Below the pieces are notes generated by a model. It was not told the DNA's origin, did no database searches, and worked only from the letters and a program-made list of their open reading frames with translations. Source: Sphagnum compactum (Eukaryota). Taken from it: a stretch of 64,000 bases of DNA. Positions 12,806 to 24,400 of the stretch are shown here, one piece after another. The translations under genes were made by a program, and so were the position numbers. How positions within the stretch are numbered: the first letter of the stretch is position 1; the number at the start of each line of letters is the position of its first letter. The stretch lies in the NCBI GenBank assembly GCA_965153455.1, contig OZ234493.1:14002213-14066212 (forward strand), read 5' to 3'.

Positions 12806-14258
12806 ATGGTTAGGGGAAGAAGACTGAGAAAAAGCGGTGGTGGTGAGTTGGAAGTTAATAATCAAAATGTTGCTACGTCAGATGAGGCAATTCTTCTGCC
12901 AAATGTTGCTGTGTCAGATGAGGCAATTCTTCTGCCAAATGTTGCTGCAGGAGATGAGGCAGTTGTTGAGCCACATGTTGCTGCATTAGATGCGGCAATT
13001 GATGAGCAAAATATTGCTACATCAGATGAAGCAATTGGTGACCGAAGTAGTGTTGCATCAGATCAGCCAATTGGTGAGCAAAATGGTGCTCTATCATAAT
13101 TGAAACACAAGGATGACAGTTTGGTATAGATTGTTTTAGAATTTATGGACATTAGATAAAATACAGATTAAAAAAATTGTACAAGTGTCTTTAAGTTTAA
13201 TTATATCTGCACCTTCCATCATTTGTTGGAAGGTGCGGGATTTTTTTTGTCGAAATTTTTCTATTGTAATATCTGAAAACAGTTCATGTTTATAGGAGTA
13301 GTATGTGATTATGTGATTTTATGTTTTGTAATACCTGCATTCTATTTTTTGATCTCTCATTTTTTAGTTTAGGTCCGGAACTTGAATTTGACCAGGCTCC
13401 TCAGCCACTTGCACTTCTTTGTCCACCTAATTTGGCTCGGAAGGACAAAGAATGGACGAAGGTTGGGTCGAAATGGAAGTGCAAAGTTGTCACTTGCACT
13501 ATCGCATATTGTGCCAAATGGTTGTTGACCAAGCATTTGAAGGAGGTGCATGGCTTGGTGGCAGAACAGGCCAAACCTGGGAGGCCTTCAACTTCTGCAG
13601 GAGGTCCTCGACATCAAGACCATGCCAAAATGAATGCTCGCATATTGGGAAATGCAATGGCTATGCAAAGGCGGAATGATCAAATGGTTGCTAATCACGC
13701 TCGTGCCAAAACACAACGCGAGTGGAAAAACCTGGTAGCTGTTGCAAAACAGTGTCCACCATTCCCAAAACCAGCTTTGGTCAAATTAGTTTCAGAGCAA
13801 TTGTTGAAAGTGTTGGGCCTCAATGCTTGGGGCGTGGGCAGTGTGCTTCGAGATGCAACATCACGAATGGAGAAGGATGAAGATTTACAAGGGATGATTT
13901 GATCCACCTGTTGTGTATATGCACGACAATTAAAGACGGCATGGGATGTCAAAAATTGGGATCGAGAGTCTAGTAAAACAAGTCGGACAAAACAGTTGGC
14001 AGATGTTTTGGATTTTCATGAATCTAGAATGATTCATGGAAGGTAAGAAACAATAATAAGCAATGTTTATTATTTTTTTATTGCATTTCATCTAAGGTGT
14101 GTTAGGGTTTAACTTGGTGGTTTTTGGGTGTTTATAGGGTTTAAGACCAAACACATGAAGAGTTTATTGCAAATGCAGTTCAAGTTGAGATGCAACGTCG
14201 CCATTTTTACACTGCTTGTCATGCAACAAAGGCTGCAAATGCAGCAGTTGCAAGCTAA
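12806..14258 (+). pseudogene. Decayed spliced gene inside the MULE: 12-aa acidic repeats, C2H2 zinc finger, GRP (AT-hook-like) motif, helical C-terminus
   Basis: Coding blocks 12806-13123, ~13368-14042 and 14138-14258, with GT/AG boundaries (14042|GTAAG ... TAG|14138 keeps frame). CKVVTC-x12-HLKEVH at 13480-13551, then KPGRP. In-frame stops TAA 13097, TGA 13900 and TAA 14142 are each one C>T change from CAA/CGA. Confidence 0.7.
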
Positions 14259-18090: not shown

Positions 18091-19860
18091 GGATAATAAA
18101 TAAGGTACCAAGGTTGGTGCAATACTTATGAGGGTAGGAAAGTGAGCAGGGTAGCTATGTGTGAGGTCAGGTCCAAGAAAAACAGCCAAGAACACGAAAA
18201 AAAAAAAGAAAAAAAAAAAGTACAGTGGTCAGCAGCAAAAAGAAATGGACTGTGATGAACCCCATCCGGCGCCGAATGAAAAAACGCACGGCATCCAGTG
18301 GACAGAACGACCAAAACTGGTGCATTGGTGGCTGCTGGTTCACTCTGGCCGTCGTGGGCACGAAGTGCTGATCACTAACTGGCATTATATTTATGTATCC
18401 TGCTGCGGGTAATCGATAAAGCCAGGTTTTTAGGCACCTTTGAGCTCAGTCAATCGATCAAGCTGCTAATTCACAGTTGCCAGCGCCAGCTGGGTGACAG
18501 TCACCACCAGGCACCAGTACCTATTACGCTAGCAGAGTTTTGTTCTGGAATTTTTAATGTAGCCTCAGTGGCGATCATCATCTATAGACAGATGTTTCAA
18601 TTGGAAACGGTGATCATCCTTAGGAAGATTTTTGAGAGATTTGGCCATAAACCAGACATGAAGTACAAATCTTTTAATCTCTCACCTATACTTATGGCTA
18701 CATCCTGAAAAACCAAATATATGAATCTAGAGCTTTTTACTCATTTTTCGCTTCAATTCTGACTATTGAAACCCTCTGAAACCACTTCATTATCGATTCT
18801 TTTAATTTTCAATTTCCACTTTCTGACGAAATTTCGCCAATAATTAAAGAAAAGGCTGAACTGTACTACCATCTACCTATCCACCGGCTAGCTATAGAGA
18901 GAGTGAAGGGAGCTGGTAGCTAGGAATTAAGTATTTAGAGTTCAAGGACTAGTTCAACGCATGTAGAACAATTAATTAACTAAGATTCAATGTTGAAGAA
19001 AATAATATCTCTTCAAATCTTCCAAAAGATTTTCTATTATTTCTCACATTATGAAAATGCCTTGTTCTTTGGAAAATTTCAACATTTCTACAGTGAATGT
19101 AGTTGTAGGAGTCAAAGCCACCAAGGTACGTACAACCCTATAAAGAGAATACCAGTAGCAGATGGATCATCAGTGTGAAATTCAGCTTCAATTGCTAGTC
19201 CGATTGATTTCTCTTGAGGAGGTTGTTTGATTCAAGGTTCTTCTCTGATCTTCTCATTTGATTTCCTAGTAGTCAACTTCCTGATTCTCTAGACCCTTGC
19301 ATATTAATTTGAAGCATCTCTAGCGTTGTGTACTTTCCTCAATGCATTGATCTCAGCATTATTGTTTTTATCTAGTCTTGTTCACGCAAAGGATCAGCTT
19401 GCGCCTGAGCTTGAGCTTTGGCTGCAAGATGTCTAAGATGGTTGTTGAAATCGATGTGCAAAACTTAGCTAGGCTAGGGGTTGTGAGATGTTGTGAATCT
19501 GTTCATGCATATGATGCAAGGGAGTCACCATTGTTGTGTATTTGTATATTGACATGAAGGCAGCATTAAGATATGGAGGAAGAGTTGCACTACACTCATA
19601 CCAGACATGCATTAAATTCCAAGCAGAACTAGATCTCTTTATCCCACATCTTCCCCAAGGGACAATATGAGAGTAAACTGTTTTTCATATGTGATTTGTT
19701 AGTGTTGTTTGCAAATACAATCTAGTGAAATTTTCAAGCTGTAAAACGAATTTGGATGCAGTTGTTCATGTTGCGTCCTCATTTGCTTTTGACGTCTGTA
19801 CTTATTAGAGGGTACCCATTTGATGATATATAGGTTGCAAAGACTTGGAGCAACGAAATC

Positions 19861-21483
19861 ATGGCATCGAAAATGTTGTTGGTAGTGTTTTTGTTGGTGG
19901 TGATTTCCATGGTCGAGTGCACAGTGGTGACAACACAAACCTACGAGAAATCTGAGGAATCCCAAGTGATCTCTAGCTTGCCCGATGTGGTAGCAAAACC
20001 ACAAAATCGTAATCAAACCATCCTTGTGCTAAAGGTATTCTAACACCTTACGATAACCTTGTTACAATTATAATATTTCCAGAAGCAATCGTAGGTGATC
20101 ACCTAAATGTATTTATTTTTGAAATGTTGATGGGTCCTCAAAGCCACCCACATGATTACATTCTCAAAATGTATGTGTGATGGCATTTGTGAAGGTTGCA
20201 TGTGAGCTTGTGAATTTGTCATGTGTAGTGGACACCTTCATATTGTGCCTTATTCGGACAATCAGCAGCTACGTGCTTCATAACACCCTACCAAGGACCA
20301 TTTTTTGACATCCAAGATATGAGCACAGCGTCTACGTCAGACCCGATCACTATCTTCGAAAATTGCAACGGTCCTGTGTTCAACCCCAATACGGTACATA
20401 TTTCTAGCACTTGAAGTCTCTTCCACGTAAACAATTCCTTTATGGTATGTTCGAGGATGCATACAAAATTCTTTTAAAGCTTGTCTATTCTGGTATCAAT
20501 CCTTCCCTATCTTAATCTTCTTGAAATTTAGCAACCTTGAACGAAGCAATTAAATGGAATCTCAAAATTTGATCACAACGTTTTCCAAAATTTGTTTCCA
20601 TGAACTTATGTGATGTGTAGAGATTAAAATGTTTGACAGTTCTACGGAACTTGACTCATGGGAGAAGGGTGTTTGGGGGGGGGGGGCTTTGTGTTGCATG
20701 TAATTGTTAGTTGACGACGTCAATTCTTGATTACATGCATGTTTACTGGCCCTCATTAACAAACGCGAATGGCAACATTACACAAAGCAACCTTGACAAT
20801 TGGAGCGCAGTTTGGGCGACAGTAGGAACTTGCACCGGCTTAAGTCAAAGAGAATATTTCAACGCCATTGTTAAGATCTATCGAAAGTACGAATTCGAAG
20901 TTGCTCTAAATGCTGCAGGTACGCACAATAATGTTGTCATTTACTTGCACCAAATTTAAAAGATCAAATATATTGCTATAAGTGAAGCATGAAGTCTCAT
21001 CACAATTCAAGTCTTATATTAATTAATTCCAATAGCTTGTACATCTTTCCTACAACTTCCCATTCATATTCTAGACTTTGTAAAATCAAATAATCGATCA
21101 TGATTTTAGTTCGCACATGTGTCCATTCATGCACGAATGCACGAATTTGAAGCTGCATATCTCTAAGAGATGTATAATGTGTGTTATGGGCATTCATAGG
21201 TATTGTCCCCGACAATGAAAAACTCTACAATGTGGACGACATTGTGAAGGCGTTGTCGTCACATGTTGGTCACCGTGTACGCGTGTATTGCAACGCCATC
21301 CCTACAACTCAAGGTGGATTTTTGTTCAGTGAAGTCTTCGTGGGTTATTCCATAAGAGAGAGGAAGGTGGTTGATTGTGAGAATGTGGGCCCCTTTGAAT
21401 GCCCTGCAGGTACACAAGTCTTGTTTCCACCTCCACCTTGCCCTAATAATGTAGCCCTTGAAGTAGGACGTTCCAAAGCTTAA
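19861..21483 (+). CDS. Secreted RNase T2 family (class I S-like) protein, predicted catalytically inactive; 4 exons, 276 aa
   Basis: Exons 19861-20034, 20229-20393, 20711-20918, 21200-21483 join in frame at GT/AG sites (831 nt). Hydrophobic signal peptide. T2 hallmarks LVLK|WTPSYC, YWPSL, W...W...GTC, YF, AGIVPD, C-terminal FPP. Confidence 0.9.
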
Positions 21484-24400
21484 GTATCCATTGAACAACA
21501 AAAAGTTGGATGGTCCAGTAATCTCAAATGAACCAAGAAACAACAAATCCATGGTCCAAGAATTTGTGCACACGGAGAAAAAGGCCAAAAAAAGTTTCTT
21601 GAGAATAATAGTACGACATTTGACATAGCCAGACTTAGTAGTGTACAAGGATTGGTATGATGAGAATTTACACAAGATCATATGCAACTTTGGATTTTAT
21701 GGTGTCATTTGAATGGCTACTTTGGGTTCTTTGATGTCATGTAATTGGTTACTTTGGGTTTTTAAATGGCTCTTGTGTGGCTACTTTGGATTTTATATTA
21801 TCATTCAATTGGCTATAGATTTCAAGAGTTTTGGTAAAGTTTGGTCTATAGGAGTCTACCTATACTTACATGAACAAGATTTCTCACATGACTATTTTTA
21901 CACAATCCATCTTGAGTAATCCAACTTGCAACTAGCTTATAAGTGAAGGCCTAGGGGCTAGGGTCTTGATTCTCATATATTGTCCTTGTGGCAACAATCT
22001 CAATAACCAAAACAACAAAAGAAAATGCAAAACACACATAAAAAAAATTGAACCCCAACCCTATTGGAGTTTGCATTTTGGAATGGGTGTGTGTCTACAC
22101 CCACAAGCCATGCCAACCATTCATCACAATCCCTTTTATAAGTTCCACCAATAGGTGAAATTATGTTGGAAAACATGTGTGGACCTAAAAGTTGTGGATG
22201 GATCATAATAGAAACTAACATATCGCATTTTACTAGACACAAAATTATACGGCTATGCAAGGCTTGTTTATCGATGGAAGCTCACATGACAATCCTTGAA
22301 CAACAATATTCCACATCCATCAAGTGATTTAGATTATCAACAACCATCTTAATCAACAATGTGTGATATGCTTCAATTGTGCTCTTTTGGTTGGACCAAG
22401 CATATTGATCCATTTAGTGTGCAAATTCTTTAATATCAAGTCTTCCCTTTTCTCTCTAGATTAATTTTGCCTACTTTTGGAACTTTGTACCATTTAGTAT
22501 AGACATTAATTTAAACACATGTGAAATTTTAATAGATTAATTTCCATTATGAAAGAAGGTAAAGAACAATTAACAACAATTGTTGGTTGTGCAAAAAATG
22601 ATTCAAGATTGAAACTATTGTCGTTTTGCACATCTTCAACACGTTCAAATTTCAAATTGAATTGAAATAAGTTGTATCTAAATTATGTTATAATGATTTG
22701 ATAACAAGTTGGGAAGCAACCTATTCAAATTGTATGAAAATTCTATGAAAAGAAAATTTTTGTATAATGTTTTTAAGAACAAGCTAGGTGCAAGAATGAA
22801 TGGACCAATTTTTGGACTATTTGACAAATTTTGAAAATTGATTATCATTACATAATGACCATAATTGATAAATAAAGTTGGATTATTTTTTACAAGGACT
22901 TTGTTTAAAGATACCAATTGGAATTTTTATTTGTTGTATTTTTTATATTTTCATAATTAGGAAAACAACAAGATATGAACTTTCAAAGTTGAAATTATGA
23001 ATTATGAACATGACAATAAATTTTTATATGGACTTTAAAATAGTTCAATGACTTTATGATGTGTGTGTTAGGGACTTGATTTTGGTTAAATAAAATATTA
23101 AAAAGTAAGTTTTAAAGTTTTGCATGATGATTTTTGTAGGATTATGCTTATGGGATTTACAAGCTAAAAACTGGGAGTTTCCTAGGGGTCTGTAGAAAAG
23201 TTTTAAAAGAGGTTTTTGGGTTATTCATGCATCAATGAAAAATCCTTGTACTTAACTTTAATCCATAAGAAAAATTATTTTTTGGACTAAAAAGGTGGTA
23301 ATTTCTAGCTTCACTTTGGTCCAGTCAATTTTGTAGCCTATACCCACCCAACAACATGTTGGATGATTAGGTGAAATATGAAAATATTTTGAACATTGAT
23401 AGTTTATTGATAATGTCAACATAAACCTAATCAAGGTGTGCATATATTTAATGGTATGTATTTCCTAACACTAGTGGTTGAAGGGATAAATCTATTTGAA
23501 ATGTTTGTTCATTTGAAATACATACATTACACCAAAATGGGTCCTTTTACAACTACATATACAACTAAGTTTATAGCCATAGGACAAACCCACTTGCATA
23601 GGACATCTAGTTGTTTGTGTCCTAGTTGTAAACATACATATGACTATGTTTTGTGACTACATAATCATGAAGAATATATATATATATATATATAATATGA
23701 TCTTTATATTATATATTTGTGTATATAATTTAATGTAATAATCTATAATCGTAATATAAATATTGAATTTGGGTAGTGGGAAAAGACAATTGTTTTTTTT
23801 GGTGTGAATAGTTGTCAATTGTTGGTAGAAGGTGTCCATTGATTAGCCTCCATTCGTTTGATTGTGGAAACATGTGTAGTCTCTTCATGGTGATGCCATG
23901 ACCTACTTGTTACTTAGTAGAAAATGTATGAGTGATTCTTGGAGAGCTAAACCAAGGTGGAAAATTAAACTCTTGACCCTTTGCATGTATTTGGGCTAGA
24001 AACATAGTTACCAAAGCTTTGGAAGCAAGATCGGGGGAGGGGGATTATTGTCCACCATGTACTTGCACCCCCTAATTCTATATTGCCTACCTATTGTGTA
24101 TTGAAAATGTGCATTTACATTTGATTGCTAGGATCTTAAATGTGTGTGATTGCCCTTTTTGTTAGCAATGGAATGTTCATGATAAAGTGTCCTATGGAAC
24201 AAAATAGATATTGATTGCAAGTTTCTTGAAGGAAACACTGGAACAACATATTGGAAAATTTAGTTCGTCAAAATGGAGCCATTCTTGCACATAGAGAAGT
24301 CAATCCATGTGTATTTGTAAAGCAATAGGTAATGAAATCCCTCCATTATCTTTCTTTGAATTTCATTTTATGTCTATTCTTATTCTTTATATTCACCGTA

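Follow-up and report, generated by a model that had tools for sequence, protein, structure and literature searches.

A transcribed RNase T2 homologue of Sphagnum compactum without canonical catalytic residues and without measurable protein constraint among its orthologues

Results

Structure and transcription of the gene

The DNA considered here is a stretch of 64,000 nucleotides from the peat moss Sphagnum compactum (NCBI GenBank assembly GCA_965153455.1, contig OZ234493.1, positions 14,002,213–14,066,212 of the forward strand), which is called the window in the following. It harbors a four-exon gene for a homologue of the RNase T2 family in which the catalytic residues of the conserved active sites I and II (CAS I and CAS II) are replaced (Table 1). 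The gene is intact and transcribed in this species, shows no measurable constraint on its protein sequence across related peat mosses, and carries disabling lesions in three lineages. Within a Sphagnum-specific subfamily described below it is referred to as type A.

All three coding introns have GT..AG borders, the coding sequence (CDS) has a GC content of 45% as compared to 35% for the AT-rich window, and the joined product is letter for letter identical to the NCBI entry "unnamed protein product [Sphagnum compactum]" (P0001). Transcription was followed with raw reads of a polyA RNA-seq run carrying the same species label (X24), of which about 12% was sampled. Altogether 168 reads were placed on the locus, 164 of them at ≥99% identity. 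Their depth is confined to the exons and the 3′ untranslated region (UTR) and is zero over the introns, and the three coding junctions are bridged by 18 (20034/20229), 24 (20393/20711), and 9 reads (20918/21200). All read pairs have one orientation, which matches a plus strand mRNA in a stranded library. By our own arithmetic, 84 pairs in 5.96 million correspond to about 14 read pairs per million, a moderate level. The same spliced form is present in metatranscriptome contigs (X1) and in a further run (X3). An annotation artefact is ruled out by the reads spanning the junctions, and the open reading frame (ORF) and splice sites described as intact in the original prediction indeed belong to a gene which is transcribed and correctly spliced and whose own copy is free of disabling lesions.

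The transcript starts with a noncoding exon. Fifteen X24 reads have a loose end before position 19832, and their 30-nt consensus maps to 19205–19234; in addition, positions 1–240 of a cDNA-like metagenome contig (L001) align to 19004–19239, whereupon the alignment jumps to 19832. From these reads and the cDNA, the 5′ UTR exon can be seen to end at 19236, where a 5′ UTR intron follows. At 19136–19145, some 95 nt before the 5′ UTR exon ends, there is a TATAAAG box. The cDNA reaches further upstream than this box, to about 19004. An antisense ORF (21259–21696) was dropped, since the X24 reads are all on one strand. A tblastn search with the protein revealed no second copy of the gene in the window. 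Intron 2 contains a run of about 11 G (20675–20686) which differs in length among species; one contig (X18) has an extra GGGGGA.

Table 1. Coordinates of the RNase T2 homologue and its parts within the window
Feature	Positions	Strand	Remarks
Coding gene	19861–21483	+	four exons; CDS 831 nt, 276 codons; stop TAA
5′ UTR exon	19004–19236	+	upstream end uncertain
3′ boundary of 5′ UTR exon	19236/19237	+	reads CAAG/gt
5′ UTR intron	19237–19833	+	597 nt; GT..AG; X24 reads and L001
Start-codon exon	19834–20034	+	CDS 19861–20034; encodes signal-peptide-like residues 1–20 and extension 21–50 (modelled disordered)
Coding exon 2	20229–20393	+	residues 59–113; start of T2 domain; RNA-seq junctions
Coding exon 3	20711–20918	+	residues 114–183; PF00445 match; RNA-seq junctions
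Coding exon 4	21200–21483	+	residues 183–276; stop TAA; tail 265–276 modelled disordered
3′ UTR	21484–21736	+	end approximate; L001 cDNA alignment stops at 21736; X24 depth to about 21745
CAS I remnant FDIQDMST	20304–20327	+	translation; Gln87 in catalytic His column
CAS II remnant NWSAVWATVGTC	20798–20833	+	translation; also contains the sequon NWS143

Loss of the catalytic residues

In active enzymes of the T2 family CAS I reads F-x-I-H-G-L-W-P and CAS II F-W-x-H-E-W-x-K-H-G-T-C. The residues of CAS I and CAS II are catalytic, as known from RNase Rh, and mutants of this enzyme have established that the two acid/base His residues are indispensable. The same CAS I motif is present in the active relatives of our alignment. 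The two remnants that the original prediction gave for the window protein proved to be exact translations. In family alignments the CAS I His column is occupied by Gln87 and G-L-W-P is changed to D-M-S-T. When CAS II of the solved structure NGR3, FWSHEWLKHGTC, is aligned over NWSAVWATVGTC, four replacements are found, namely His>Ala, Glu>Val, Lys>Thr, and His>Val. Thus, none of the five canonical catalytic residues is left, their places being taken by Gln, Ala, Val, Thr, and Val. Because both acid/base His residues as well as the phosphate-binding His, Glu, and Lys are affected, the protein should not be able to cleave RNA by the T2 mechanism, and we infer from the sequence that it is catalytically inactive. 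The catalytic role of the CAS II His is also stated in a survey of land-plant T2 sequences (PMC5598434). With T2 homology and the essential His residues absent, the protein falls into the inactive plant T2 or S-like RNase homologues, a polyphyletic functional group for which PMC5598434 applied the same criterion. The loss of the whole HGLWP motif had been considered extreme. It is not unique, as the corresponding stretch of dead angiosperm T2 proteins is VETMET in Musa (P0030) or VSTMAT in Nymphaea (P0035).

Fold and predicted properties of the protein

The Pfam family PF00445 (Ribonuclease_T2) matches exon 3 with E 8.8e-9 and 36.2 bits (cut-off 26) and exon 4 with E 8.7e-5 and 23.1 bits, which is under the cut-off; the same family is also precomputed for P0001. 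An AlphaFold2 model built from an alignment of 68 sequences has a mean predicted local distance difference test (pLDDT) of 80.4 and a predicted template modelling score (pTM) of 0.74. It is confident for residues 51–262 and of low confidence for residues 21–50 and 265–276, the pLDDT being 50–65 over residues 1–50. A Foldseek search of the model against the PDB gave 19 matches with E ≤ 0.001, every one a T2 RNase or E. coli RNase I, with RNase NT (1vd1) as the best match (E 1.1e-14, TM-score of 0.84 on the target, root mean square deviation 3.3 over 216 columns). On the basis of this model the window product has the RNase T2 fold.

The N-terminal MASKMLLVVFLLVVISMVEC is modelled as a helix and looks like a signal peptide. 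Each of the three N-glycosylation sequons of the original prediction (NQT51, NIT135, and NWS143) occurs in the protein and is found again in all 12 orthologous proteins. The protein is likely to be secreted and is probably N-glycosylated. The cysteines were described as intact as well. Seven core residues (C64, C74, C104, C154, C213, C242, and C250) align with family Cys columns; at the place of the "CC" doublet of the relatives there is a single Cys, so that the set is not fully canonical, and the extra C263 in the tail is variable, being Gly or Arg in several orthologues. Elsewhere in the protein there are three His residues (H123, H204, and H207). The mature protein has an isoelectric point (pI) of ∼5.1 and an unremarkable composition. 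The idea of a storage protein finds no support in this composition and the pI of about 5.

Orthologues and disabling lesions

The 12 orthologues comprise proteins of S. compactum, S. balticum, S. fallax, and S. jensenii in addition to transcript-like contigs of 1.2–2.3 kb with uninterrupted ORFs of 274–290 aa. All 12 proteins have the dead motifs FFDIQDM or FLDIQDM and NWS[AT][VI]W[AT]TVGTC. A metagenome scan yielded six loci that are collinear with the window along their whole length, including the flanks, with 92–94% identity; for the lesion-bearing loci the collinearity spans 1.9–3.1 kb. As the collinearity extends into the flanks, these loci are orthologous or homeologous to the window gene.

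The exons of the metagenome loci were aligned base by base with the window. Locus L004 is intact. In locus L003 the frame is interrupted by a stop at codon 50, and one nucleotide is inserted into exon 3 directly behind CAS II. In L006 codons 70 and 87 have become stops, the latter being the Gln codon in the former His column. The genomic locus L005 and the spliced cDNA L001 both lack one nucleotide of an A-run within exon 4; the frameshifted product ends with ...GIVPDNENSTM before the stop, which is the same end as in the S. fallax proteins P0002 (193 aa) and P0024. Thus, disabling lesions are present in three lineages, two of which carry two lesions each.

Two further observations were made in the alignment. 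In the lineage of S. fallax and S. jensenii-like sequences a G>A change at window position 21234 (nt 35 of exon 4; ∼846 in L001, ∼1381 in L004, and ∼1371 in L005) converts AATGTGGAC to AATGTAG/AC, so that an additional 3′ splice site arises within exon 4, 36 nt from its start. This site is used in the models of 267 aa that NCBI gives for S. fallax and S. jensenii (ALNAG/DDIVKV and ALNAA/DDIVKV), which thereby omit 12 codons. The 1-nt deletion of S. fallax falls into the omitted stretch, so that the short isoform is in frame; the canonical isoform, as seen in the cDNA L001, ends after 193 aa. In addition, codons 49–50 (window 20005–20010), located immediately before the first sequon, are hypervariable among the orthologues and encode NR, NH, KH, KN, or NG, and K-stop in L003, which differs from the window at four adjacent bases.

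Tests of selective constraint

In the comparison of the two intact genes, window and L004, 45.3 nonsynonymous and 12.7 synonymous differences give a dN/dS of 1.04 by the NG86 method (bootstrap 0.59–2.18); other methods yielded 0.98 (LWL85), 1.19 (YN00), and 1.34 (maximum likelihood). The NG86 values of the window against L003 and L006 are 0.79 and 0.73, respectively. Between window and L004 the divergence of the coding sequence (dN 0.074, dS 0.07) is about that of the introns (K 0.058) and of the 3′ UTR (0.057).

We further used our own code for the GY94-F3x4 likelihood on a tree of five orthologous sequences, in which stops and shifted codons were treated as missing. The one-ratio model M0 gave an omega of 1.01, indistinguishable from omega = 1 (p = 0.96). 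The profile has a 95% confidence interval (CI) of about 0.64–1.66; values of omega ≤ 0.6 or ≥ 1.7 can be rejected, and for omega = 0.5, which is among them, twice the log likelihood difference (2 delta lnL) amounts to 9.25. Among the five sequences neither heterogeneity between sites (two classes vs. M0, p = 0.62; M1a vs. omega = 1, p = 0.93) nor a class under positive selection (M2a vs. M1a, p = 0.67) could be detected. For the deepest split, the pN/pS computed per exon is 1.9–3.3 in exons 2 and 4, which is not significant versus omega = 1. Among at least 97 coding substitutions in seven sequences, three are nonsense changes, as compared to 3.75 expected under neutrality. Replacements avoid the family-conserved columns weakly at best: 18.7% of these columns are variable among eight orthologous proteins versus 24–26% otherwise (p = 0.094).

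Within the power of five sequences, the coding region thus evolves neutrally. The original prediction had regarded a lack of expression together with a dN/dS near 1 as speaking against a non-catalytic role; of this pair the gene presents one half, as it is expressed and has a dN/dS of 1.01.

A Sphagnum-specific subfamily

A HMMER scan of 1.84 billion representative proteins with the window protein gave 295 matches at E ≤ 0.001, of which 13 are at E ≤ 1e-10. These few matches indicate that the window protein is very divergent among the T2 homologues. Its nearest relatives are Sphagnum proteins of three further types, which all keep the CAS I His. Type B is represented by S. magellanicum CY35_13G039900 and the transcript-derived P0200 and P0201, with DF[LI]IH[AT][IL]WT at CAS I and YWK[LE]MW[NE][VL]YGRC at CAS II, and type D by S. 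magellanicum CY35_13G039800, in which CAS II reads YWKLLWERYGWC. Type C, the transcript-derived P0202, has in addition retained the Glu and the second His of CAS II (EYWKTEWERHGRC). In type A, the window gene, none of these residues is kept at either site.

In a careful tree types A–D form one clade (support 99/99), in which the stem of type A has a length of 1.13 changes per site versus 0.05–0.32 for types B–D. Like the window protein, types B–D start with MASK..., have an N-terminal extension (TVVT...SQVIS.P...), the motif NCNGP.F, and a degenerate CAS II. They differ from it by an identity of 33–38%, by their CAS I His, and by a different Cys-bearing C-terminal tail; type B, the one measured among B–D, is basic with a pI of 8.4 in contrast to ∼5.1 for the mature window protein. 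Since types B–D keep the CAS I His, the ancestor of the subfamily still had this residue and type A lost it later. Judged from these motifs, the active site of this Sphagnum-specific T2-like subfamily appears to have been lost stepwise, and its erosion has gone furthest in type A.

By their locus tags (13G039900 and 13G039800) types B and D are neighbours in S. magellanicum. Word-based searches with exon 3 and with the full protein, which returned two 90% clusters, yielded no type A protein of S. magellanicum, and this is weak evidence. Compared with P0200 and P0201, the S. magellanicum model P0175/P0026 lacks a stretch of 35 residues around CAS II; this gap is probably a gene-model artefact or an exon-skipped form. 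Type C, in which the His of CAS I is kept along with Glu and the second His of CAS II, might retain weak activity.

Age and probable past function of the lineage

Healey et al. (2023, PMC9946827) report that Sphagnum diversified 7–20 million years ago (Ma) and that the two reference species split about 16 Ma. They also describe two older whole-genome duplications with Ks peaks of 0.406 and 0.643 (102–122 and 189–247 Ma) as well as synteny of chromosome 7 with chromosomes 3, 13, and 14. The locus tags place type A on chromosome 7 in S. fallax and types B and D on chromosome 13 in S. magellanicum. With the synteny reported for these two chromosomes, an old duplication is plausible.

In comparisons within Sphagnum, a protein difference of about 12% is accompanied by about 0.065 synonymous changes per site. 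At this rate, and even if it had evolved fully neutrally, the stem of 1.13 amino-acid changes per site would require roughly 0.5 neutral changes per nucleotide site. The crown group has acquired five disabling lesions over about 0.117 substitutions per site, and at such a rate a freely drifting frame should gain some twenty lesions along the type A stem. As the frame survived this long stem, selection would have held it open for most of the history of the lineage, after the loss of at least part of the catalytic site. The sequence comparison thus argues strongly for a past non-catalytic use of type A.

Other features of the window

Between 11300 and 12800 there are long overlapping ORFs on both strands that are of low complexity (rich in A, K, F, S, and R) and resemble a simple-repeat block, not genes. 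A 197-aa open frame on the plus strand (13309–13902) contains a zinc-finger-like Cys...Cys...His...His stretch, CTIAYCAKWLLTKHLKEVH, and may be a fragment of a transposon or of a regulatory gene.

Discussion

The reading that we prefer, and to which we give slightly better than an even chance, is that the window gene codes for a non-catalytic, weakly or no longer constrained secreted protein of the T2 fold, and that it is the most degenerate member of a birth-and-death family, intact in the window species and a pseudogene in several congeners. The active site would have been lost stepwise within the subfamily, with type C keeping the His of CAS I together with Glu and the second His of CAS II, types B and D only the CAS I His, and type A none. 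For most of its history type A is likely to have served a non-catalytic use with little demand on the sequence; to call it a scaffold for binding or storage is guesswork. The protein is under no measurable constraint in living Sphagnum, and independent knock-outs have occurred in at least three lineages. Type A would now be a dispensable member of the birth-and-death family on its way out rather than a pseudo-enzyme under clear selection. The pseudo-enzyme with a non-catalytic role suggested by the original prediction can be upheld for the past, for which the long survival of the open frame speaks. A present role is not supported, as the dN/dS is 1.01, dN, dS, and the intron divergence are about equal, nonsense changes have accumulated as under neutrality, and three lineages are broken. 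Thus, we infer that the gene is dispensable today.

Nevertheless, several observations weigh against this reading, and some of them would be expected if the protein still had a non-catalytic job wherever it is intact, for example, in the binding of RNA or nucleotides, in microbial defence, or in nitrogen storage. Such a working pseudo-enzyme is the main rival reading, but we consider it rather doubtful. An omega of about 1 would then be the net effect of two kinds of selection, purifying for the fold and diversifying for the surface, with an occasional species-specific loss. In favour of a present job, the gene is expressed and exactly spliced, and its frame not only survived the long stem but is intact in the window, in L004, in S. 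balticum, and in at least eight transcript-derived proteins. In exon 1 only 6.6% of the columns are variable versus 14.5% in exons 2 and 3 (p = 0.0096), and the omega of exon 1 is 0.48, which is not significantly below 1. Exons 2 and 3 in turn are slightly faster than introns 1 and 2 (14.5% vs. 10.2%, p = 0.06), which could reflect diversifying selection; the elevated pN/pS of exons 2 and 4 also fits a present job. The seven core Cys residues, four Trp residues, and the three sequons are invariant in the 12 orthologous proteins, for which we obtained P of about 0.01 at 23% variable sites, a rough estimate for residues chosen post hoc. Moreover, per pair with the window there are 1–2 gap events in the coding sequence versus 5–7 in the introns, and two of the four distinct coding indels (6 and 9 nt) are in frame. 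The lesions of L003 and L006 each come from a single metagenome contig. The power is low with five sequences and about 97 substitutions, and the omega values stand without a control gene from the same species pairs. Finally, if the stem also ran at an omega of about 1 with an open frame, the present omega of 1 alone is not proof of decay. Roles are also known for other inactive T2 proteins, namely for OsRNS4 (PMC12871459) and, as a storage protein cited in PMC5598434, for CalsepRRP.

In contrast, no class of sites with an omega below or above 1 improves the fit, the nonsense changes are at the neutral expectation, and replacements hardly avoid the conserved columns. Disabling lesions are found in three lineages, two of them doubly hit, and the mature protein with its pI of about 5 is without the basic shift which PMC5598434 ties to functional shifts of dead class I T2 proteins. 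A much less probable alternative is that types A–D and the OsRNS4-like proteins of angiosperms (magnoliids, Nymphaea, monocots, and Stephania) are one ancient non-catalytic lineage of land-plant T2 proteins, the window gene coding, like OsRNS4, for an extracellular RNA carrier. Many of the best library matches are indeed angiosperm proteins without catalytic residues (P0027 with E 5.5e-16, P0030, and P0032), and both groups have Thr in the CAS II Lys column and no Phe before the first Trp. In a quick tree of 54 rows with the CAS columns kept, the Sphagnum family joins the dead angiosperm clade weakly (support 65), and the union is not rejected by the approximately unbiased (AU) test (delta lnL 3.8, p = 0.396), for which the group was defined after viewing the tree. 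When the CAS columns are removed, the Sphagnum family lies outside this clade in a poorly supported position (support 22). In addition, the Sphagnum ancestor still had the CAS I His of types B–D and the CAS II Glu and second His of type C. The dead proteins form a clade (support 98) whose 15 named members are all angiosperm, so that many losses elsewhere would be needed. It is therefore simpler to assume that the peat-moss lineage lost its catalytic residues independently. It is equally improbable that an ancient secreted RNA-binding lineage of this kind is engaged in an arms race with microbial partners or pathogens which would account for the fast change and repeated loss of type A. That the protein is still a ribonuclease using other residues, such as the remaining H123, H204, and H207 within the kept fold, has no direct support and is extremely improbable. 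All five canonical catalytic residues are replaced, and OsRNS4 shows no detectable activity with only two His residues replaced (PMC12871459).

With the neutral birth-and-death reading the gene holds a lesson for annotation, since an intact, expressed, and well-folded pseudo-enzyme can evolve neutrally. An intact ORF and expression thus do not establish function. The graded series from type C over types B and D to type A within one genus could serve to study the path from enzyme to pseudo-enzyme and pseudogene. Dead T2 homologues are common in flowering plants, and the peat-moss gene adds another case; the finding opens no long-standing question. We found no dead T2 homologue of a moss in the searchable literature. 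PMC5598434 and PMC9250077 make no mention of Sphagnum, the latter having Physcomitrium patens as the sole bryophyte sampled, and supplementary tables may list further bryophytes.

That inactive T2 proteins occur in angiosperms, as stated in the original prediction, is borne out by PMC5598434 and PMC12871459. According to the former, 91 of 711 land-plant T2 sequences are without His or known to be inactive; repeated independent losses are also reported, and an inactive clade of the Poaceae is cited there from MacIntosh et al. (2010). The genera with dead proteins among our matches include Cinnamomum, Persea, Asimina, Magnolia, Nymphaea, Musa, Acorus, Carex, Dioscorea, Aristida, Stephania, and Aristolochia. 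Their clade has Lys and Tyr states that match H66K and H125Y of rice OsRNS4, for which PMC12871459 reports no detectable activity, RNA binding, support of immunity, and conserved binding residues. The proteins of the OsRNS4 type, inactive class I S-like RNases of angiosperms, share with the window protein the T2 fold, a secretion signal, which is putative in the window protein, the absence of catalytic His, and a comparable erosion of the CAS motifs, which read DFFVTGLQT and NWKNSWKTSGVC in P0027 of Cinnamomum. They differ in that the RNA binding and the immune role of OsRNS4 have been tested (PMC12871459), whereas the Sphagnum gene shows no measurable constraint. The named members of this type are all from angiosperms, and common descent with the Sphagnum gene is neither supported nor rejected.

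Two further proteins with solved structures resemble the window protein in sequence and in the Foldseek comparison. Trichomaglin (1sgl) is matched with a sequence E of 1.2e-10 and a Foldseek E of 1e-11, and CalsepRRP from Calystegia sepium (1jy5) with 1.8e-8 and 2.9e-11, respectively. The latter is a class II T2 homologue without canonical His which is thought to be a storage protein (PMC5598434). Both differ from the window protein by their angiosperm origin and an identity of 21–25%. The nearest solved structure is RNase NT or NGR3 from Nicotiana glutinosa (1vcz and 1vd1; phmmer E 1.5e-13). In contrast to the window protein it is an active S-like enzyme with the CAS II given above, it does not have the N-terminal extension of ∼30 residues, and it is 25% identical.

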